Origin: Felis catus
Lineage: Eukaryota
Length of the DNA stretch: 64,000 nt
Reading direction: 5' to 3'
NCBI RefSeq assembly: GCF_018350175.1
Contig: NC_058368.1
Location: 6,510,001-6,574,000 of the forward strand
The position numbers and the translations under genes are program-made. How positions within the stretch are numbered: position 1 is the stretch's first letter; each line of letters begins with the position of its first letter. Below the pieces are notes generated by a model. It ran no database searches, had not been told where the DNA came from, and saw only the letters and a program-made list of their open reading frames with translations. Shown here one piece after another: positions 7,509-60,845 of this stretch.

Positions 7509-8090
7509 TGTACTAGCAGGATTCTCCAAAGAAATTTATTTGTTTATTTGTTTTTAAATTCATTTATTATAAGGAATGGGCTCGTGTGATTATAGAGGCT
7601 GACAAGTCTCAAGCTCTTTGGGGGTAAATCGAAAGGCTGGAGACCCAGGAGAGTGGGCGGTGTGGTTCCAGTTTGAAAGCCATCAAGCTTGAGCCCCAGG
7701 AAGAGCCAATATTTCAGTTTGAGTCCAGAGGCAGAACGAAGAACTGATGTCTCAGCTCAGAAGCCATCAGATAGGACGATCTCCTTACTCTGCCTTTTGG
7801 TTCTATTAAGCTCTTCAAATGATTAGACAAGACCCACCCACATTGGCTTCTCAGCTCAGAGGCCATCAGTAGGAGGATCTCCTTACTCTGCCTTTTGGTT
7901 CTATTAAGCTCTTCAAATGATTAGACAAGACCCACCCACATTGGAAGAGCAATCCAATTTATTCAGTCTACCCATTCAGATGTTAATGTTATCCAGAATC
8001 ACTCTCACAGACACACCCAGAATAACGTTTGACCAAATATCTGGGCATCCCATGGCCTAGTCTAGTTGACGCATACAGTTTGTCATAACA
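7509..8090 (-). mobile_element. MLT2 (ERVL) LTR
   Basis: tttattataaggaat...cacagacacacccagaataac...gaccaaatatctggg...agttgac. Confidence 0.8.
7750..7944. repeat. Near-perfect tandem duplication of about 98 bp (2 copies) inside MLT2
   Basis: tctcagctcaga...gacccacccacattgg occurs twice, ending at 7846 and 7944. Confidence 0.95.
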
Positions 8091-20098: not shown

Positions 20099-20879
20099 AA
20101 AGCAGCAGCCTGAAGGTTAATTACAACACCTTCACAGAAGCAGTGGGTAGTTAGCATGACTGTGAAACAGAGTCCCCTTGGGGCTCAGGCGCAATCACAC
20201 CTCAGAGGTTAGGCTGTTTGCTTTCATTTGAAGGGGCAGCTCGACCCGCTGAAATCATCTGCTGGGATTGAAGTGAATTAAATTCCCTAGGGAAAGCAAT
20301 ATCTGAAAAATTCTACAGGAAGAAGACTACTGTAAATTATCTTGCATTTTCCTTCGGTTACGCAGACATCAGTGGTTGTGGGGGAGGGAGATGTACAATG
20401 TCAAAGATGAAAGTATTCTGTTAGAATCAAGAAAATGGACTCTTTATTGCCAGTGATCTGGGGAGCAAGCCTGGAATGTATGTATGACGGTCACTCTTTT
20501 ACCGGCCGAGTGTCCAGTGCCCCAGCCCGGTCACCAGCAGGCAGGAACCTGCTCTCAGGTCTTCGCCGACTGGTCCCAGCTCTCTCGCCAGCCCCGGAAC
20601 ACAGGGGTTTCATGACTGACAGCACTATTTCTGATTCCAACCTAGTCACATGAATGCTGTCATCGTTCCTTCGGAAGCCACAGTCCACAGCACTAAAATT
20701 CATCGTCACTCTCTCCCGTCCTTCCTGCCCTGCCCACCTGGTGGGGGCGGGGCAGGGGGGGGGGAGAAATAATTTGTATGAATGAATTATATATGTTTTT
20801 AATATTCTGTATATTTATATATTCTTTAAACCTTACTAGAATTGGTAAAATGAATTTCATTCATTCACTCATTCATTTC

Positions 20880-30809: not shown

Positions 30810-33171
30810 ACACCACTTATAACTTTAAACAGGAGGCTTTGTCTTAATTGTAGAAGTAAAACTTAGTGACAGTAACAAGTCCTCAGTCATTTCGCTCAGC
30901 TCTCATGTCCAGCGAGGGATCACAGGCAGCCTGGTGCAGGGAAGGGGTCAGGCGTTGGCTTTGGGAAAAACCTGGCTCTACCCTGGAGCTCTGTGACCTC
31001 AGAGAAATTGGTTAGCTTCTCTTCACCTTAATTTTCTTACCTGTAAGTGTATTTTAGTGAATCCAGCAACAAAGCAGGTACAGCATCCGGCAGGGAGCCT
31101 GGCACAGAACGTGCAGAGAGAAACAGCACGGTCATTATCGCTAAAATTCCTACTGTTAGAGATATCCAAGTGGGCCACCGTTTCTACAAAGGCAGCATTT
31201 ATTGCTTTAAACCTCATTATGAGTCTTTGCCCGCACATGTCAAAACCAACTCACCTTAGTCATTTCTCACAAGGGGACGCTGTCTGGTTTTCCGTCATTA
31301 AGAAACGAACAGACCCATCACGTCCCATCCACCAACTCCATCAAACGCTCAAAAGGAATTTTTTTAAAGGCATCAGGTTGATTAGATTGGTCATACGGTG
31401 ACAGGGATTAAAAATCCCGCTTCTGAAATATTTCACTCTCCCGCTTCCGCAAGTAACCTAGGGGAGGAGACCCAGATTCGAGAATGGGATTGGTTCACCC
31501 TTGTGCTACATACGAAGGCGAGAGGGACATCAGTATGCAGGCTGACAGAACGGCCCCGAGACCACCACGGGCATAACGTTTGGGACAAACCGATGAGGTG
31601 AATTTATTACCAGTGATTCCCCCACGGACCCTGAAATACCGGTCTTGCCGCCATCCGAATGGGCTTAGTTGACATCCCGTCCCGAAACCTTTCGTCGATT
31701 GTACAGGCACCACTACGGATCCACGGCAAATGGAGGGAAGGTATGTGCGTCTAAAACATCTGTCTGACTAAAGGAAATGGCGCTCAGACAACGATTTTGC
31801 AATGTGCTTACAACCGAGTCTTCTGTGTTATTTCTTGACAAAAATCTTTGCTCTCTGGGAACAGGCAATGCAGTTTTTATTGCATTTAAGTTGTTTTTTT
31901 TGGTGAAAAGAAGGAAAAGGAATTCAAAGTCAGCTTCTCACGAACAGCCACATGGTCACTCCGCTGATGAACTTACAGAGGGTAGCTTACAAATATCACC
32001 GTCAGATACGCGTGGTTTATACGCACTCGCCAACTTAATCGTTAAAATAGGAGACCACCTGTTTCAAATGCACTTTGTGCCACAGACGGTGTGAACCGGA
32101 AATATTTGATCTACAAGATTTAATTCTATTCGTCTCAATCAGGACTGACTATTAATACATTCTTAGATATAGAGAGATAGGAAACGTGATGTTTTCATAT
32201 TTCGCGACAGCTTCCCATTGCTTTATTTTTCAGAATATTCTCCAATAAACGTAACCTACTTTTAATAGATGTTACTAAATTTTTTTCTTTTGTTCCCTGA
32301 AAACAATCAGACTGTGGTTTAAGAAACTACAATGGCCGGTCTAATCAATCCCACTTCATATGCAAATCAAGACAATTTTCAGAATTCGTTTTAGAGACAC
32401 ATTGAAAACCTATATTGAAAGCGGACTCATTTGATTCTGGATTTACACGGCAACATTTGAAACTAGTGGTCTAGCTAACACAGGCAACCTTGCAGAAAGT
32501 CACAACATTCACAGAAATACCAAAGTAATTCTTGTGAACAGTAATTGCTCCAAGTAAAGAAAGAATGAACAAGAATGGGTACACGGTTTCCGTGTTGGTC
32601 ACTTATCACTGAGTTCACGTTAATAAAACCGGGTCTCTTCCAAACAGAATCATGTGAACTATTTGTGTTGGCTCGAAAGAGATCATCTTCAGTTAGATAC
32701 ATGCAGCGTTGAAAATCTACCTTGACATGAAAAAAAAAAAAAATCTGGAAAAAGTCACTGCTCCTCCATTGATCGCAATAATTCAATTTTATTGTCGAGT
32801 CCAAGTAAACACTCCAGGACCAGTTTACTTTTGATAACATCATGGCCACAGCATACACTTTCTTTCCCACCCGCTACCAATCCTCCAAATACAACAGAAA
32901 ACAAAAATCCCTGCCTCTCAACAAAACAAAATAATCATTTATTTTATTTACTTTTTTTTTTAAAGGGCGAAGACACTGGCAACATTATTTCCACTTCGAT
33001 CACTTAACTCATCTAAAGGAATGCTTCAGAAATGCTGGGTGCTCCTGCGGCTGGAGAGGAAAATCCGGTCGAAAGGAGTTAAGGACAGCATCTCCACCAC
33101 TGGGCCGGGCAGTGAAAGTGCTTGGTAAATGCAGAATTTAGTGCGCCGCGTGTCCCCTAAGGGGGAGGCTG
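30810..33171 (-). other. GPR12: GPR12 3'UTR (extent uncertain, may run further left)
   Basis: Largely repeat-poor AT-rich sequence after the stop codon. Minus-strand AATAAA at 32938-32943, 32788-32793, 32222-32227, 31876-31881, 31603-31608 and 31198-31203. Confidence 0.55.
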
Positions 33172-34176
33172 CTACACGTCGCTGGGGGACCGCGCTCTCT
33201 GGGAGAGACTGGACGGGATGCAGCCGCAGCAAATGAGACAGAGGGCTTTCTGGATTTCTTGGTTTCTGAAAGCATATATGACAGGGTTGATGATGGAGTT
33301 GTAGGTGGCCGGCAGGAGGGTGGCATAGGTGTACATGGAGGGGTAGGTGTAATCAGCTATCAAGGAGTAGAGCGTGAAAGGCATCCAGCAAGCAGCGAAG
33401 GTCCCCAGAATGATGGCCAGGGTGGAGACGCCTTTCCGGGTGGTCACGTAGTGGGAGGTGGCCAGGAAGTGATGTTGCAGGGCGATCTGATGGGCGTGCC
33501 GCATCACGATCTTGCAGATCTGGATGTAGAGCTGAAGCATGAGCGCAAACATGAAGAGGAAGGAGACGGAGAGGATGGCCGCGTTGTTCTTGGTGAGAGG
33601 TCTGACCACGCTGCAGGTGGACTCGTCTCTGAGGCAGTTCCAGCCCAGGACGGGCAGCAGTCCCAGGCAGATGGAGGTCCCCCAGAGCATGACGAGCATG
33701 ACATAGGTGAACGTGACCGTCCTCTCCGAGTGGTACGTCAGCGCGTAATACAGGGAAAGGTAGCGGTCAACAGTGATAGCCAGCAAGCTGCAGACAGAGG
33801 CAGAGAAAGAGGCGACAATGAGCCCGATTGTGACCAGCTTGGTGGCTTCTGACTGAAGCAGGTAGGCAAAAACAAAATTGATGATGAGTCCCACGCCGGC
33901 CAGTAAGTCTGCCAGAGCCAGGCTGCCTATGAGCAGGAACATGGGTGCTCGCAGGCTGGGGTTATGGAAGATGATAAGGACCACAATGGCATTTTCACAG
34001 GAGATGAGGGTTCCTGAGGTACACAAGACAATGTCCCAAGGGTTGACAACCAGCTCTGGCTCCGGCTCGACAACAGGAACCTGGGAGGAGACGGCAGCCG
34101 AGACGTTCTCCGCAGCGCCAGCATCTAAATACTCCCGAGGCAGCCCGCTTAAATTGACCTTCAGGTCTTCATTCAT
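33172..34176 (-). CDS. GPR12: G protein-coupled receptor 12 (class A orphan GPCR, GPR3/6/12 family), single coding exon, 334 aa
   Basis: Translation MNEDLKVNLSGLPR...RARSPSDV matches GPR12 as I recall it. It has seven hydrophobic segments and the motifs LALAD (TM2), VDRY (TM3), CWMP (TM6) and NPVIY (TM7). The ATG is at 34176 (CAT at 34174-34176 on +). The ORF track's TTG start at 34197 crosses the predicted splice acceptor. Confidence 0.98.
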   Translation of the reverse strand: MNEDLKVNLSGLPREYLDAGAAENVSAAVSSQVPVVEPEPELVVNPWDIVLCTSGTLISCENAIVVLIIFHNPSLRAPMFLLIGSLALADLLAGVGLIINFVFAYLLQSEATKLVTIGLIVASFSASVCSLLAITVDRYLSLYYALTYHSERTVTFTYVMLVMLWGTSICLGLLPVLGWNCLRDESTCSVVRPLTKNNAAILSVSFLFMFALMLQLYIQICKIVMRHAHQIALQHHFLATSHYVTTRKGVSTLAIILGTFAACWMPFTLYSLIADYTYPSMYTYATLLPATYNSIINPVIYAFRNQEIQKALCLICCGCIPSSLSQRARSPSDV

Positions 34177-34215
34177 TTTAACCCCCGTCCTCTTCAACGA
34201 AAAGACAGGCTTTTT
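34177..34215 (-). other. GPR12: GPR12 5'UTR intron 3' splice acceptor and start of the coding exon
   Basis: Minus strand reads cctgtcttttcgttgaAG|aggacgggggttaaaATG: pyrimidine tract, AG at 34193-34192, 15 nt of UTR, and A at -3 (Kozak). An alternative AG lies 2 nt downstream. Confidence 0.65.
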
Positions 34216-34299
34216 AATGTTGAGACACAGCAGGGCGACAATCCAAGATCATGCAAAACACACACAGACAGAAAGCCAGCCCCTGCTCAGACACCGCCA

Positions 34300-35600
34300 T
34301 CAAATGCCACACGCTTCACCAACTCGAAAGTGTCACGGAACAAAACAAAGGGCAAAGTCTCGCCGGCTGAGGACCCGCGACCACAGATGCCGGTGGGCGC
34401 TGGGGACGACACAAGATCGGACTTGGAAACACGAGCGTGAGCGAGGCAGGCACACACGGAGCCGCGGCGGACCGGTTGCTAAAGTGCGGGCAACGCACAG
34501 CTGAAAACCACATCCTGCATGCTGGAACCGAACCCCCGTGCCACCTCTGGGCTGCTGCCGGGGCGGCCCCGCCGCAGCCACAGGTCGCGAGCCGGGGGCC
34601 GCCATCCTCGATGGAACATTTCAATCGCCTATTTCCATCGAACTCCCCCTCCCCGCTCCAAAAAAATCAAACCAAAACCAAAAAAAAAAAAAAAAACAAA
34701 ACAACCCTCGCGCGCGTGCACACACTCACCCCCCTCCCCAAGCCAGAACAAAGAGGGGTCCCAGCCGCCCCCCCGTGCGCACGGGGCAGTCGGGCCAGGG
34801 TCACAAAAGGCAGGTGTGTGCAATGGGAGTGTGGACACAGACAGACAGACACACGCCCATGCACCTGCCGCCGCTCCCCCCCTCCCCCGGCGGCGGGGAC
34901 GGGCGGAGGACGCGCGGGGACGGGCAGGGCGCCGGGACAGGCGGCCCACGGGGGCGGGGGGGTCATCGAGGGGGTCACCTTGGCGCGACCAGGCCGAAGG
35001 GGCTCCTCCGGTGCTTCCGAAGCGCGCGGGCTACTCCTGTCGCATGCCCGCGGCGGGGCCCGCGGCGGCGAGGGGCGGTGGCCGCGCCCGGGAGTGGGCG
35101 GGTGGGGGGGGGGGGGCGCGCGGGGCGCGCGCTCCGCGCCAGGTGAGCTGCGGGCGGCAGGTGAGCGGCGGGCTCGGCTCGCGTGCCCGGCTCTCCCCGC
35201 CGCGCGCCCGCCCGGCCCACACGCTCCCCGCGCGCGCGCCCCCGCCCCTGCGCCCGCGCCCGCCGGTGCGCGCCCCGCCGCCCGCCCGCGGGAGCCCCGG
35301 GAGCCCGGCGCGCGCCCCCAAGGCTCGGCGCGCACCTGCAGGCGACGGCGGAGCGCGCGCGGCTGCAGCACCCCCCCCCCCCCCCCCCCCGCCCCGACCC
35401 CCTCTGGGAAGGAGAGGACCTGGAGGCCGCGACTTGCACGCTCGCCTTCCCGGCCCGCTGCCCCCGCACGCCACCCCTGCTGGCCGTCTGGGGCTTGCAC
35501 CGGGTGACAGGCAAAGGAGCACTGCCCGGGAGCCCGGTGACCTATTTATTCCGTTCCTGAGGTCTCCCCGGGGAGTCGCAGTCTCCCGGGCCCCCGCTTC
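34300..35600. promoter_or_regulatory. GPR12: CpG island containing the GPR12 promoter and non-coding exon 1
   Basis: Very high GC and CpG density with GC boxes (GGGGCGG/CCGCCC), directly upstream of the CDS. Candidate minus-strand donors: CAG|GTGCAT near 34864, AAG|GTGACC near 34978, CAG|GTGCGC near 35335. Confidence 0.9.
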
Positions 35601-36644
35601 TCCACGCCTTTGCCTAAACTGCCACGTTCATGGCCCAAAGGATGGCTTAGGGTGGTGTTCAGGAGTAGCGTTTGGGATCCACGGTGAGCGGGTTAGGGAG
35701 GCTGATCCTTCAAGCAGCAACATGATTGGCCAGCTACTTTGCAGTTGCCGTTGACCACACTGCATCCGGATCCCCAAAGGGTTCCTTTCCTCAGGTGTGT
35801 GTTAGACCTGGTGCATTATGACCGTGCCCCGGGGCACATTGGCTTAACCGCATGTAAGGTGCTGTTCTGTGAATCATCATTCTCATCAAATCGCACTTAT
35901 GAAGTGCTCCTTGAGCTGTTTTCAAATAGCAATCGTCTACTGAATTCCTGCAGAAGCTTCCTGCAGATGCTGGCCGAAACCCATTCATCTGGGTCCTGGA
36001 GTGGCAGTGTTAATTTATTTTTTTTCATTTCAACACATCGGTAGGTTCTAAGATTAAGAACCCGATAGCCGTCTGCTCTTATGAGCTCATGTCTCCTCTG
36101 GCTGCAAAACCTAGAGCGCCTAGTAGATCTTAAAGTTAAAAGTGAACTCCCAGCTTAAAGATGGGAGAAAACAAGGCTGGATATTCTGTTTTTGTTTGTT
36201 TGTTTTTTATTTATTATTATTATTTTTTTTCCTTTCAACAGTGAAGGTTTCCTGACTGCCTTTCTCCACCGCACGGTAAGGGTCCTGTGTGAACAGAGAT
36301 AGCCCGCGGAGCATGGGACCCTACAACTCCTTCCTCCAGGGGCATCATCCTCTGGCCATCCTGCCTCTCTCCGGTGCTCACTGTCATTTCTTACCCCAGC
36401 CCTGCAGATTCCCCTGCCCTTGACTTCCCCTTCTCCCTTTTCCTCCCTTTCCCCCATCCATGAGCTCTGGCCTCTGCAAGATCACCCTGTCTCTCCCTAC
36501 ATGCCGGTTCTCAGCTACAAATCAGCAGTTCTGCGGTGGGGCCCAGATTCTTCGTTTGCAATCCTCTGTCCCGGAGACCCCAATGTTCCTGGTCCACGTA
36601 CTCCCCTTGGAAAAACAAGGTTCTATGGAGTTTGTAGAACTCCT

Positions 36645-36860: not shown

Positions 36861-38039
36861 GAACTGCTTGTACCTGGTGGGGAGGCATCAGACACCTGTA
36901 CCTGCCAAGAGCCATGCTAATCGCTGGGCGCAGATTCACTAAGATGTGATCTCCCTACTCACGGGCATGTATCTCGTGCTGGTGACAGACACATAAAAAG
37001 GAACTATAATGTCGGGCAGCAAATGCTGTCATGAAGGGATGTATAGCTTCCTCTCAATTTCTATGTGATGAATCAACGCGCTTTTAGAATCAAGGGTTGA
37101 TAACCAGCTGCTTAAGCATACACAACAGTTTCAGCACGGTGCGGTTCAGACTATCTGCCACTTGGGAGCCTCGCATCCACACCGCAGTTCGGGGAAGGCT
37201 AACGCACAGGGCTGGCCACACACTGCTCTGGTCGATCACACGGAGACAGTCCCTGCCCTACAGAGCGGACAGGAGTGGCATTCATTCCCTCTTTAGTGTG
37301 TTTGGGAGTTGTGGGGGGCGGGGGAGAAGAAGGGTTGGGAAGAGAAAAGGTAATGAGGTGGGTGTGTTTCCCCACAGCGAGATCTTGAATTCAAGGAAGA
37401 AACCGAAGGAACGCACACGGGGCTGGATACGGCTAAAGGGCAGTTTCCCGGGGGCTACGGCGATGTGGGCACCTCCTCCGGATTGCCAGCATTAGCTGTG
37501 CCTTCCCAGTTCTGCTCGCTTCCCCCCCCCCCTGCCCCCGCCCCTCGAGCGATCGCTTGTAACACCACGAAGACTTTAAACTTTCCTCCCAATTCTAGGT
37601 TTATTTGTGCATTTGTTAGGACTTTTGTTGCCAAAGGGCCGAAATCCAATTCAAAGTAACTGAGTTACAAATGGAAATTGTTGTCTGACATGGTTGGGAA
37701 AGATTCTGGAGTGGCTCTTGGAAAAGCAGAAACTGCGGGAACAGAATTCTGTGTGCCAAGGCTCGCCGTCAGTCCCTGTCTCTGGCTTCTTCCTTGTCTT
37801 TGTTTCTCTGTGTTTGGCCGCCTCAAACTGACTTTCCCCAGACAAGCATCTCTCATGCGGCCATGAAAGCGGCCCCAGCAGCCCTCCCCACCCCCCACCC
37901 CACCCCCACCCCCACCCCCACCGCCCCGCTTACATGCTGAGACCATCTTCCGAGCTGGGGCCAGGGGTTCCCATGGAGAGCGCTGGCCCCGCCTGGTGTG
38001 TGCCCAGCCCTGCACCAACCCACGGCTGACGGGATGGGA

Positions 38040-38790
38040 TGAATTAGTCGGCAAGGCCCGGATCACGCATAGAGTCCTGCGGTGGGGTTTCCACGCGTAC
38101 TTTGCCGAATGGGCATTTCCCCACGAGAAAAGTGAGCTGGGACGCCAGATGGCCTCTGCAGCTCGGAATCCGGTGGGCTGATCGGGAGGTTTTGCGTGGC
38201 CCTCAGTGACGTGGCTCGTAGAGTTGCAGTCTGCAAGGCTGCCTCGTCAATTCATTCACCACTCGTTATAGGACACTGGAGCGGATGCCTTCCGGACGTG
38301 ACATTTCTTGCCTTTTCATCGTGTACCGTTTTGGTCACCTCTCTCTATAGCTCTGGCAAGAAACGGTGAGCCTGAAGCACAGCCTGGCACCTTCACAACC
38401 TATACGAGCAAGTACTGTTTAGTGTGAGAAAGACTGTGCCCGTGTTAATCACACACAGCATCTTGGCTACCTTCAGCCCCGTACCTACATTTCCTGGCCC
38501 TTCCTCGTCATTGACTTTGTAGACCGTGGGGCCGTCCCCACAGCGGGATTATTATTGGCGGGAGCAAGTCGTAAACTGAGCCAGTACTGTGGGGAGGGCG
38601 CGGTGCCTACGCTACAACGCGACTAAACAGCTTCTTTGCTGCCCGTGTTAATGACTGCGAGTCAATTTCTGTATGTTTGATTAATTGGTGCACTGATCTG
38701 AACCAGATTATTAGCCACGCTTCGCGCTGCCTCGCCAAGGGTCGTATCACACCTGAGAATAAAACGCGACTCCAAATTAACGTTTCGTTT
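38040..38790. repeat. Degenerate tandem array, unit about 185-205 bp, about 4 copies
   Basis: TGCCCGTGTTAAT at 38437 and 38640. CATTTC at 38114, 38302 and 38488. 17/22 ungapped match between 38301 and 38487. Confidence 0.45.
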
Positions 38791-38829
38791 TTATTCTTTT
38801 TCAGTTTACGGTCCTTTTTTTTTTTTTTT

Positions 38830-39360
38830 TTTTTTGGCTGGGTGACCTACATACAGAAAGCGCGTATTTCCCAAGCACACGGTTTGATGCAGAGATGCCC
38901 AGTGGATATGCCAACGTCCTCTCTAGCCATCCTGAGAAATAGAACATTGCCAGCGCCCCAGCTGTCCTCTGGCCCCACGCCAGTTAGTACCCCCACTAGG
39001 AAAAGAAAACCACTCTTCTCAATTCTCACCCCGTCGATTGGATCTGCCTGTTTCTGAGCTTTACAGGAACGGAATCCTACATTCTGTATCGTGCTGTGCC
39101 TGGCTCCTTTCAGTCGACATTGTTTCCATGAGACTTACTGACTCGTTGCATGGAGCAGTAGCGCACTCTTTTTCATCGCTGCGTAGTATTCTATTGCATA
39201 ATATGCCACTTGTTTTCTAATACATTCTCCTACGGATCTTGAGCACGTTGGGTGAGTGTCTCGTTTCGGCTATCGTGAAGAAAGCCATGATGAACATCCC
39301 AGAACATGTCATTTAATGCGCATATGTTTGTATTTCTATCAGGTGTACTCCTAAGGCTGC
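38830..39360 (-). mobile_element. Old L1 (L1ME-like) 3' fragment
   Basis: aaatagaacattgccagc...ctggctcctttca...atgaacatcc. Confidence 0.7.
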
Positions 39361-39756
39361 ATCGTTTTACATTTGTATTTTAATATTTAATCCTCCGTTG
39401 AAACCAACCCTGACTTCTCTTTAAAGGCAGTGAAGGGCCTATGACAAATCATAACACATCCCTCCTTTTCCCTTTCCCAGGCCTTCTACCCTTCTCATTT
39501 TAATGGAGAAGGAACCTATTTCATGGGAATGTCAGGAGATAGAGAAAGGAAGGACGCATCACACAAAGACAACATTTGGGCTGAGATTCTGTGTGAGAAA
39601 GAATTCTGTTGTCCGTGCTAACATTGCCTTCTGTACAAATTTTTGTGTTTTCAAAGATGTATTACTTAAAAAAAATTTAAAAAGTCTTTTTCTGATTCTA
39701 AAACAATACATATTCATTACAGAAATCTTGCTGCCTGCGACTAAAATTAAAAAGTA

Positions 39757-40254: not shown

Positions 40255-40614
40255 GTGTTGATACATATTTTTAATGCATTCGCTGGAGTGTTTTTTGTTT
40301 TTTGTTTTTTGTTTTTTTTCCCCAGAGTAACTTGAGGAATTACAGTAAAACCTTGGTTTGCAAGCATAGTTTGTTCTGGGCGCATGCTTGTAATCCAAAG
40401 CACTTGTATATCAAAGTGAATCTCAAGAACCTTTGGCCCAGTTGTGATCATGTGACATTTATCAAGTTAAAGTTCATTACAAATGTTTGCTCATCTTGGG
40501 GAACTCTCGCAGAGCACGGTACTTGCAATCCAAGATTTTACTGTATTTTATTTGTCATTACTGCACGGAAAAATACCTTTCCTGCACCGCCTCCTGCTGT
40601 CTCTCTGTCCCGGT

Positions 40615-40945
40615 GGTAGCTGAATGATGAACGGCCCCCAAAGATATCCTCGCCTTAATCCCTGGAACCTGGGAGTATTACCTTATACGGCGAAATGGAT
40701 TTTGTGACGCAGATGTAATTACGCGTCTCCGGATGGGCAGATTTCTCTGGATTAGGCAGGGGAGCCCTAAGTGTAACCCAAAGGTCTTTTCCAAGGATTG
40801 AAGACAGAGGAAGCAGGGCCAGGAGCCAAGGGGTGTAGGCAGCCTGGAAGCTGGAAAGGGCAATGAAATGGATTCTCCCTGGAGCCTCCGAAAGGAATAC
40901 AGTTCTAGGGACCCACTTGTGATTTCTTGCCTCCCGAATACATTG
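40615..40945 (+). mobile_element. MLT1 (MaLR) LTR
   Basis: ggcccccaaagatatcc...taatccctggaacct...ggagccaagg...gattctccctggagcctcc. Confidence 0.8.
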
Positions 40946-40949
40946 ATGG

Positions 40950-41250
40950 GTTTTTTTTTGCTGATACACACAATTACTAACTAAAGTCCATAGTTTCCGT
41001 TAGTGTTCACGCATAGTGTTGTACGTTCTGCGGGTTTTGGCAAATTTATAATGCCGTGTCTCCATCATCATAGGGTCATACAGGGCAGTTCCCCCCTCCC
41101 GAAACTGCCTTTGCTGCACCTGTCCCTCCCTCCCCACCCCCAATCCCTGTTCACCACTGTATGGTTTGCCTTTTCCAGAATGTCATGTGGTTGGAGTCAT
41201 ACTGTACGGAACCTTTCTGAGCTAGCTTCTTTCCCTTAGTAACGTGGGCG
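40950..41250 (-). mobile_element. L1MC-like fragment
   Basis: taactaaagtccatagttt...tttgccttttccagaatgtcat. Confidence 0.75.
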
Positions 41251-42336
41251 CGGGCATTGGCCACGGGGTGGGGGTGGGGGGGGGGCCGAGCCTGCACCTC
41301 GAGTCCGCACTCCATCAGAAGCATAGAGTGGCAGGAGCCGGGCACTGTGCCCATCCCAGGGCCACCCCCTGATGGGCAGGGCCAGCGTTTCCTCCCGAGG
41401 TAGATGGGCAGGTGATGCGAAGGAAGCCGAACCTGAGGCACCTCTCTGGGGACTCCCCACGTCACCAGAGGACGCTCGGCGCACGTCTAACTTTTCCCAT
41501 CAAGCCAGCGACGGCCCGGGCCGCCACTGCTTGGGTATAAAGAGGAAGCATTCACCTGGACCTTCATTCAGCTTGTAAACAAGAGAGATCGCTCTCGCCC
41601 GGCTTTGTAACAAGGACCCCCCCCCCCCATCCCGAGCTGGGCATCGTAGCTGTGAACTGTAGTAGGCTGCTGGCTCAAGCGTGCCATGGTCCCCTGGGCA
41701 GAGAGCCTGGACAGTTAGCTTCTTGGGCCGTGGCCCCCCTGCTGCGTTTGTGCAAGAAACGCAAGGCGAGAAGCGGGGTGATCGGGCTTGCTGTTGATTC
41801 TTTGAGCCACTGAGGAGCGAGCACCGTTCACACAACCTAAATGCTTTGTATTTGAGATGAAGAATTCAACGTCTTTGCGGGCCAGCTTGACAACACATAC
41901 CCTCTCTGCAAAGAAGCCTTCCTCGGGGATCTATCACTTGGTGCAACATGAATCACGCGTTCTCGATCTCTCTCGTTCGTTGTGACCTACATTTCATCGT
42001 ATCTGATGGATGTCCCTGCGAGGTTGGGAGGAAATGTGCACGGTGAGCAAAGATACAGCCTTCCCTGCTGATGTGGTTTTAGAATCGTGGCACGTGCCTC
42101 CTGGTTGTGCCTTCTTACTTTAAACGAGGAAAGGGAAGGATGCTCCGGGGCTAGCTGGAAGGAGGAAAACTGTGTGTTTGGATGATGTGCTACTTTTCTT
42201 CCAATTCTTCCTTTACTATGTCAGGAGGCCCAGGCAGACGATTATAATCAATAAATTTTAGCCAAAACGTGATTGTTGGACATGTCCCCCCTCCTGTGGT
42301 TCTTGAAATGCTGGTTTAAAGTGCTGGTGGATAAAT

Positions 42337-50543: not shown

Positions 50544-50930
50544 CTCTGGGGCACCGTTCTTGAGCTCTGGTGCATACTGGCTTAAGCCAGATGTTACTGA
50601 CCAATTACATGGGGCAGCCTACCCAACTTCAGTCAGCAAATTATGATGTGTTTTGACCTTTGGAGTCAAACGTATGTGGGCTCACATCTCAGCTCTACAA
50701 CACATTGACTTATAACCTTGGGAAGTTCTGCAACCTCATTGAGCTTCAATATTTTCATCATTCATTCGGCAAATATTTCTCGAGTAGACTATGTATGTGT
50801 CAGGAATTGTGCTAGGAGAACAGAACAAAGCAGTGCCCGCATGGATGGAACTCAAAGTGTACAAGGAGATCCATTGCACAAATAGTCATTTAATTGTAAT
50901 TGTGGAGAATCATCAAAGCAATGTTATAAA

Positions 50931-51056
50931 TAGAAATATTAAATATCATAGAAATGTTAATAAAACAGAAATATTAAATATCGTAGAAATGTTAATAAAA
51001 CAGAAATATTAAATATCATAGAAATGTTAATAACATAGAAATATTAAATATCATAG
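50931..51056. repeat. 35-bp AT-rich minisatellite, about 3.6 copies
   Basis: Unit agaaatattaaatatcatagaaatgttaataaaac, itself an 18+17 bp dimer. Confidence 0.95.
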
Positions 51057-59437: not shown

Positions 59438-60845
59438 ACTATGCAGAGTCTAGTGTCATGGAGCAGGAAGCAGGGCTGTAGGGAGGCAGGGCATGAGTCT
59501 GAAGACTGGGTTGGGCGTGAAGGTCACCAAGGAGGCGTTGGGGGCGTTGTCCCTGGCTGCACAGCCTGCAGTCTCCGTCATGTGTGCTGTGATGTTTTCC
59601 CACCACCTGGCCAGGTCCCCCAGCTCAGTGTTGCTGGGGGATGGGCGCCAGTAAGGCTGGGTCAGGAGCCAGGAAGGAGAGCAGATGCCAGGGAGGCTCC
59701 TGTGGTAAGGAGGGCACTGGGTATGCTCCGGGGGTCAAGTAAGCTCGAAGAACCGGGAGCGTCAAATGTCAAGGCAGCGGAAGTCCACAGCCCAGACTGC
59801 TGAAGGTCGACATCCAGGGAAGAGACCCCGGAGCCTCTCATTTTCGGGCCAATATTCTCTGCACCGCTGGTGTATCTCACGGTGGGGTCGACCCTGTGAC
59901 CGCCAAGGTGCAGAGCCGGGCAGGGTCTGCTCCTGCCGGGGCCGAGCTGTAGGAAGCCGCGTGCACGCCCGCCGCCTCTCTGGGTCCCGCCCTGCTCGGG
60001 CGAGCCCTGCCGTGTTGGCCTCACAGTATCTTGGGCAGACGGCACTGTCAGAGACTTGCACACGTGACCCAGGGGAGGCGACAGGGCTTGGAGACTCCAG
60101 GGCTGATGGATTCTTTTTGTCGCCCAAGCAGGTCCACACCAAGTGTGGACACCTCGGCTCTGGAATCGAGATCTGAAAACCGGCAACAAGAGTGAGACCG
60201 AAAGCATGGTATGGACTTTAAGTATGGCCGGTGGGCAATCAGAAAGAGAGAAAATGCATGAGCATATTTGGAAATATAGTTTCCTTGCATTATGACAGAG
60301 GCACGTGAACCCCCAGCTCCGACAACAGGGGGGTCAGCTCTCTGGCTTTAACAAACTCAGATGAGCAGAGGCCAGGAGAGTAGAAATCCTGGGAATTAAA
60401 AACGCAAGAGTCAGCCACTCAAAAGCATCTCTCTAAACAGCTGGGTTTTAGCTGATTTTGTATATATTAGTATGTCTAGTTTCCATTTACTGTTGCTTGC
60501 ATAAAACATTGAGGCCTTTTTTTTTTTTCTTATGAAGGCTCTAAACTAATTTTCCGAAGACAATTCTAAAAGCCTTGTTCCCAAATGCTTAGGGGGAAAC
60601 TGCCGACCAAGGTAGTTATTTTGCAGAAAACAGGGTTCCTTTAGACACGTATTGTGGCCTAAGTAGATGTTAAGCACCGTGGAGCTGAGGGGTGCCATGA
60701 AGGGGCCCCCTGTCCTCTTAAAGCTCATTATTTGGTGAAGGGGCTGAGCATAAAGCAAATAAACACACAATAATTGCAATTGTGTACAAGTGCTATGAAG
60801 GATTTTTTTTTTAGAAGGGAAATTCTGTTAGAACAGAAGCTTGAG

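Follow-up and report, generated by a model that had tools for sequence, protein, structure and literature searches.

Directly repeated short words in a patch upstream of cat GPR12: a candidate control element possibly seeded by an old local duplication

The DNA analysed here, referred to as the window, is a stretch of 64,000 nucleotides from the genome of Felis catus. The reading frame at 33172-34197, transcribed from the minus strand with its ATG at 34176, was identified as GPR12 by its match to PDB entry 7y3g_R (GPR12; E 1.7e-214). A CpG-island-like promoter region is located at 34281-35700, with a GC content of up to 0.85 and a CpG observed/expected ratio (O/E) of 0.8-0.96, extending to about 35600-35700. 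The patch under study, 38040-38790, lies 2.4-3.2 kb upstream from this CpG-island-like stretch, in agreement with the nearness to a GPR12 CpG island claimed in the original prediction. All sampled words of the stretch were present in 14 of the 24 listed sequencing runs, which came from 10 studies (6 once the studies marked as a possible source are left out). The stretch is therefore not an assembly artefact.

The sequences on both sides of the patch resemble old mobile elements. On the left, 37615-38160 (plus strand, boundaries set by eye) resembles an LTR that we take to be of the MaLR MLT1J/K type. A match to 20611-20689 (minus strand) covers its first ~75 bases; 3 of 300 shuffles aligned equally well, and nhmmer gave an E of 4.3. 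On the right, 38790-39370 is presumably the 3' end of an old L1 element on the minus strand, the T run at 38815-38835 being read as its poly(A). Relatives of the right flank were found within the window by blastn (E 1.2e-4) and by nhmmer (E 0.008 and 0.02), with a score of 4600 against a median of 1465. For both flanks these searches concern the dispersed nature only, the right flank having relatives in the window and the left flank one weak relative. Given the LTR-like sequence on one side and the L1-like sequence on the other, the unique part of the patch is reduced to about 38160-38785. The patch had been described as free of any recognisable transposon; this was not confirmed, since the first of its proposed units overlaps the end of the sequence at 37615-38160 that we take to be a MaLR-like LTR.

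All the words on which the original prediction was built were found at their positions. The 13-mer TGCCCGTGTTAAT occurs at 38437 and 38640, its only two plus-strand copies in the window. Weaker versions are present at 38056 and 38240; compared without gaps, each differs from the 13-mer at more than 3 positions, and the patch contains no third copy with 3 or fewer mismatches. The two good copies form block T (38437-38452 and 38640-38655; 15/16 identical, offset 203, posterior 0.94-0.99), which carries a TAAT core and one CpG. CATTTC recurs at 38114, 38302 and 38488; with 32 plus-strand copies in the window it is uninformative alone. The match between 38301 and 38487 was confirmed at 17/22 and defines block R (38301-38322 and 38487-38508; offset 186, posterior 0.63-0.90). 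GATTATTA, at 38547 and 38706, corresponds to block V (38547-38554 and 38706-38713; 8/8, offset 159), which together with its flank reads TAATCC on the minus strand and has a posterior of only 0.40-0.46. AACGCGACT, at 38616 and 38763, belongs to block X (38613-38624 and 38760-38771; 11/12, offset 147, posterior 0.95), which contains two CpGs. CAAG, TCGTA and CTGAG, at 38565, 38569 and 38576, occur again at 38736, 38742 and 38753; TCGTA itself was not significantly enriched (120 of 1000 shuffles). One pair missing from the earlier word list, block S, was found at 38406-38418 and 38578-38590 (12/13, offset 172, posterior 0.87-0.88). All five blocks were read on the plus strand. Additional word pairs were located at 38455/38627 (13/17) and 38046/38228 (11/12).

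Posterior decoding of the self-alignment yielded one chain with offsets of 182, 186, 172, 203, 159 and 147, the secondary pairs 38455/38627 and 38599/38723 being out of order with it. Over all offsets, 11 word pairs of this score were observed against 5.9 in shuffles, so that some chance pairs are to be expected among them.

Two further similarities of the patch were recorded. Positions 37369-37383 match 38535-38549, next to block V, at 14/15 in direct orientation (offset 1166). Positions 38465-38549 align without gaps over 85 bases to 59874-59958 on the minus strand, with 50/85 identical bases as counted by eye; the score of 2692 (median 1385, best shuffle 2059) is borderline given 206 targets and 5 queries.

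The patch contains an excess of short direct matches that is confined to offsets of 140-210. The summed ungapped-match excess was 11.5 for offsets 180-205, compared with 0.45±0.86 in shuffles, and 19.5 for offsets 140-210, compared with 1.29±1.48; neither value was reached in 3347 shuffles, and that of the wider band was not reached in a second set of 7047 either. No excess was detected at offsets 20-139 or above 210. On single diagonals the ungapped identity is at background: the seven listed at 184-203 showed 0.22-0.27, against a mean of 0.25. The period of ~190-200 bases that had been proposed was accordingly replaced by supported offsets ranging from 147 to 203. When all offsets were taken together, 24 direct matches were counted against 7.0±3.5 (0 of 500 shuffles). 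Inverted matches were not in excess (55 of 500 shuffles; 298 of 500 for unit B against the reverse complement of unit C, both described below). The chain of exact words was equalled in 0-1 of 1000 dinucleotide shuffles in six settings and ranked fifth among the 81 peaks of the window, pairs of the simple-repeat, CpG-island and SINE-related types ranking higher.

When the masked window was scanned with a block pair-HMM, the patch came third of 119 peaks, behind two tandem repeats that TRF also detected and that served as positive controls: 7750-7944 (98 bases x 2, 96%) and 50912-51056 (a 35-base unit x 4.2). The patch scored 4.1 bits, a value reached in none of 23 shuffled whole-window scans (best 0.9), and the tail estimate for a segment pair of 4.1 bits is 0.007 per window. 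These figures were obtained with HMM settings, unit borders and an offset band that were all tuned on the patch, and the absolute log-odds of the block alignment amount to only about 4 bits. One of the 66 cleaned control chunks, 40555-41398, came close to the patch on the all-offset statistic (z 4.6 against 4.9); its direct matches are spread over many offsets, and it scored -5.1 in the block scan against 4.1 for the patch.

Four equivalent units had been proposed. Only two of them, unit B (38437-38639, the best supported) and the shorter unit C (38640-38785, which ends in a T-rich stretch before the L1-like flank), proved to be well supported, with pair-HMM z values of 3.6, 5.2 and 6.6 as the model was made blockier. 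The B-C signal persisted when the best word, the 16-mer of block T, was removed (score reached by 9 of 2000 shuffles). For the linkers, 1919, 1945 and 1264 of 2000 shuffles aligned equally well, and it is therefore the words that carry the case for common descent of the units. Unit A (38240-38436) is weak: it is related to B only (28 of 2000 shuffles without the 16-mer) and unrelated to C (z 0.3-0.4). The putative first unit, 38040-38222, is marginal (89 of 2000 shuffles, z 2.1-2.4); it contains the first copy of the word pair at 38046/38228 and overlaps the end of what we take to be the MaLR-like LTR. An alignment of all four units had 5 invariant columns of 310. HOXD70 alignment recovered the 16-mer alone for B/C and a weak stretch for A/B (z 3.7 and 2.7), and nhmmer queries with single units detected no neighbouring unit at E<5. 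An origin of the units in the LTR-like left flank was considered and rejected (z about 0). The description of the patch as conserved blocks with linkers of variable length thus held for B and C, for which the blockier model was better and the linkers were unrelated.

Decayed satellite and minisatellite arrays are the targets of TRF, tantan and ULTRA. The patch resembles such arrays in its direct orientation and in the similarity of neighbouring units; it differs from them in that its period varies, its non-adjacent units and its linkers are dissimilar and no family was found elsewhere at 80%. TRF gave no row in 38040-38790 at score 30. Five contigs from 2 runs, in a set filtered beforehand, matched the stretch at the 80% threshold; all were at least 95% alike, and no contig less than 95% alike was found in these 2 runs. 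A simulation of the neutral decay of a duplicated unit, in which substitutions and indels accumulated and CpGs turned over fast, yielded the pattern of the patch in 0 of 1298 runs. In a second simulation, with more and longer indels and again fast CpG turnover, it appeared in 0 of 1360; a similar block score was reached in 209 of these runs, but the gap between block and uniform scores was at most 7.2, against 11.1 for the patch. A neutrally decaying satellite is disfavoured, since near-exact blocks among random linkers never resulted; the earlier suggestion of a decayed satellite was not borne out, the fixed period being absent as well. Nor did the alternative of a repeat-spacer array find support, because the blocks are dissimilar among themselves, the longest has no more than two copies and the spacing varies by 56 bases. 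What remains as an origin is selection on the words, copying of short patches, motifs of an old element, or chance.

Several other classes of sequence were considered. A SINE target-site duplication would leave a direct repeat like the 15/16 one seen here at a distance of about 200 bases, and 8 of the 10 such pairs examined in the window flank SINEs. In the patch, unlike these, the insert has no other copy in the window (27-35 copies for the 8 SINE-flanking pairs) and lacks a poly(A), blocks lie inside and outside the interval, and the 16-mer has 8/16 A+T, compared with 10-14/16 in the SINE-flanking pairs; this class was rejected. A pseudogene of a repeat protein was likewise rejected: in six read-through frames Pfam gave nothing above cut-off and three weak matches (best zf-TAZ, E 0.006, 17.5 against 25 bits). 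Rfam gave no match at the gathering score in the patch and 4 weak ones, far below cut-off, in 37500-39500; no stable RNA fold was predicted on either strand (z 0.38 and -0.64). Searches of plasmid and phage collections by blastn returned no match to the patch, and the paired-word pattern was found in 0 viral contigs. A metagenome match, L001, lies inside an unrelated frame of 385 residues (151-1308 of L001) that presumably encodes a pogo/Tigger-type transposase. It showed no blastn match, its best tblastn match (E 0.078) fell elsewhere in the window, and it was rejected since by a rough estimate about one chance match is expected. A scan for bacterial promoters and terminators stayed at chance level and is not applicable here. 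No match was found in the literature on degenerate ancient repeats.

The low CpG depletion noted in the original prediction was found in the patch (O/E 0.91 over 38040-38790 and 1.04 in units B-C), and a 750-base window overlapping it ranked third of 85 in CpG O/E. It is not special to the patch: the median of the window is 0.50, the L1-like flank reaches 0.75, and 31400-32300, an AT-rich region 3' of GPR12, reaches 0.95. A germline-unmethylated CpG island was rejected on the GC content of 0.51-0.52, the criterion being above about 55%. Contig X15, 99% identical to the stretch over 722 bases, differs from it at 8 positions, 4 of which are CpG transitions; with CpGs occupying 86 of the 722 bases this gives P 0.009, for a small sample in which the direction of change is unpolarised. 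Per base, differences are thus about 7 times as frequent at CpG sites as elsewhere (4/86 against 4/636 bases). This suggests that CpGs turn over fast here, and the CpG level is for this reason read as a regional property, not as that of an unmethylated island; GC-biased conversion may account for it. A literature search found nothing relevant on GC-biased conversion in carnivores.

Three CpGs in blocks T and X are retained in both copies. As to the distribution of the X15 differences, 1 falls in 38437-38694 and 7 fall in 37973-38436 (P 0.16 for the split, or 0.03 with the boundary chosen afterwards); within blocks, 1 of 7 was observed against 2.2 expected (P 0.29, from one 99%-identical contig). 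The differences lean toward selected blocks, not significantly so.

The patch contains TAAT-core words that we take to be of the homeodomain type: TAATCC/TAATCT, TGATTAAY, TTAATGA, TAATTG and GTCGTAAA. Units B-C hold 9 TAAT/ATTA cores; shuffles give 2.3±1.4 (1 of 1000 as high), and in 446 GC-matched, overlapping windows of real sequence the mean is 1.8 and the highest count 6. Duplicated words contain six of these nine cores, which makes the count dependent on the repeat, and the motifs were picked after the patch had been read; the density is for these reasons suggestive only.

We consider it possible, with a probability of roughly 0.42, that the patch is a distal cis-regulatory module of GPR12, seeded by an old duplication, in which homeodomain-type words were kept by selection. 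As a class, a small gene-control element derived from an old local duplication would be a more likely explanation than a satellite. The starting point of the proposed scheme, supported by the shuffle statistics, is single-copy DNA between the old LTR-like and the old L1-like element that holds words of 8-22 bases twice, in the same orientation, mostly in the same order and 147-203 bases apart. This arrangement would have arisen when a unit of 150-200 bases was duplicated locally and in tandem, once or several times, very long ago. The linkers would then have lost all similarity and changed in length, as their present state partly indicates, with the words remaining 77-100% identical. Since neutral decay did not reproduce the contrast between blocks and linkers, purifying selection has probably preserved the words. 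As several of them carry what we take to be TAAT-core sites, the candidate module would bind homeodomain factors and might tune GPR12 transcription from its CpG-island promoter, at a distance of 2.7-3.2 kb, most plausibly in neurons. The position of the patch, its blockiness, the CpGs retained in blocks and the TAAT density would all fit a distal module of this kind.

The same observations could have other causes. A rather unlikely one is a functionless relic. Either patches of 10-20 bases would have been copied from nearby DNA when breaks were repaired or by non-allelic gene conversion, or large indels would have fragmented an old duplication; fast GC-biased turnover in the region would also account for the CpG level. 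This reading is favoured by the fast CpG turnover, as in methylated DNA, by the CpG-rich nature of the whole window including the L1-like flank, and by the repair-mediated local duplications common in vertebrates, among which short "doublets" have been described (PMC2671141, accessible text). The window also holds a second lone near-exact direct pair separated by unique DNA, 36015-36036 and 36220-36241 (offset 205); no similarity continues beyond it (152 of 500 shuffles), and its second copy, which ends at 36241, reads by eye as a plus-strand splice acceptor. What counts against a relic is that decay of whole units, the case simulated, never gave the pattern, and that independent short copies would hardly all be direct, mostly colinear and confined to 147-203 bases. 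Chance would mean that the patch is the best cluster of coincidental words, picked by a reader who was seeking such clusters. A 15/16 match at offsets 100-300 turned up in 2 of 10 shuffled windows, and the random linkers, the silence of nhmmer and the recovery of only the 16-mer by HOXD70 are what coincidence would leave. With 0.007 per window and 88 windows surveyed in this genome, about 0.6 matches like that of the scan would be expected, so the scan taken alone would not exclude coincidence, but its peak is due to blocks R, S and T, and blocks V and X add independent support (the 9 of 2000 above). The restriction of the excess to a one-unit band speaks against coincidence as well, and multiplying these figures gives roughly a few in 10,000 per window, with tuning still to be allowed for. 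Since the patch itself served to tune settings and borders, we regard chance as unlikely and do not lower it further.

A transposon origin appears distinctly unlikely. The shared words would then be motifs of an ancient element, such as fragments of a MIR-like SINE or an internally repetitive LTR, which a later local duplication may have copied. Several words resemble, in order, what we take to be reverse-strand motifs of MIR SINEs, and the first putative unit lies in the flank we assume to be LTR-like. A profile of four MIR-like stretches of the window missed the patch at E<10 (pairwise z no higher than 1.9), a comparison that has no power since these stretches barely match one another (z no higher than 2.2). 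A 15/16 word would hardly be common to independent old copies, and the lack of contigs less than 95% alike at the 80% threshold speaks only against a young multi-copy family. Outside copies were sought in viral and prokaryote collections, and no mammalian one was found. Finally, the words could act in RNA, the patch being the last exon of a divergent plus-strand lncRNA that starts from the GPR12 island and ends at the AATAAA at 38758; we hold this to be highly improbable. This AATAAA is followed by a T-rich stretch, and the splice-acceptor-like sequence ending at 36241 lies on the appropriate plus strand. Against this, AATAAA is expected 0.94 times in a stretch of this kind, the patch shows neither a stable fold nor an Rfam family, and no ordinary transcriptome run among the 24 listed contains the stretch, the RNA-labelled ones being metatranscriptomes or possible DNA; about 2% of one oligo-dT run yielded 0 reads, a sample too small to serve as a test. 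The segment 38758-38805, with the AATAAA and the T-rich stretch, looks like a poly(A) site on the plus strand and is predicted to fold into a local hairpin, although the fold as a whole is not significant.

A regulatory module built by duplication is an already known kind of system. In Drosophila, according to the accessible part of Nourmohammad and Lässig 2011 (PMC3188502), local duplication seeds binding sites and its trace is kept by selection. The fly modules share with the patch an excess similarity of nearby short words, diverged flanks and a spacing shifted by indels; in the same text the verified sites are up to about 50 bases apart, whereas the patch is mammalian and presents several words as a set of candidate sites at offsets of 147-203. 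In vertebrates, repair-mediated duplications have a mean length of 162 and a median of 147 bases, the donor lying mostly within 5 kb (accessible part of Pace et al. 2009, PMC2671141, citing Thomas et al.). These duplications and the "doublets" described there resemble the patch in that unique DNA of about 150 bases is copied locally and in direct orientation. Their copies are contiguous, alignable and on average 1.2 kb apart; those of the patch adjoin each other and agree in short words only.

As for the gene, the accessible text of a recent report describes Gpr12 as expressed in brain and acting in the thalamus, its expression level affecting working memory in mice (10.64898/2026.09.03.749183). 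Promoter activity of chicken GPR12 was located within -1962/+277 (PMC8065388, accessible text). In the titles and abstract openings of the GPR12 literature, most subscription journals and supplements aside, no upstream element of mammalian GPR12 was described.

If the patch were a neutral relic or a product of chance, it would have little significance. A bolder extension of the regulatory reading, which we regard as very doubtful, is an enhancer of GPR12 found across mammals, in which a homeodomain-type module would be repeated 2-4 times, about one nucleosome (147-203 bases) apart and separated by linkers free to evolve, presenting the same set of factors once per nucleosome. Were this true, ancient repeats conserved only in blocks would escape TRF, nhmmer and alignment alike, and a genome-wide block pair-HMM search could give a sign of old enhancers from sequence alone. 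If the distal module seeded by duplication is the correct reading, the patch would provide a compact candidate control element of GPR12, of about 350-550 bases and with specific words to mutate, and would extend duplication-seeded binding sites to a mammal, at a longer range than in flies.
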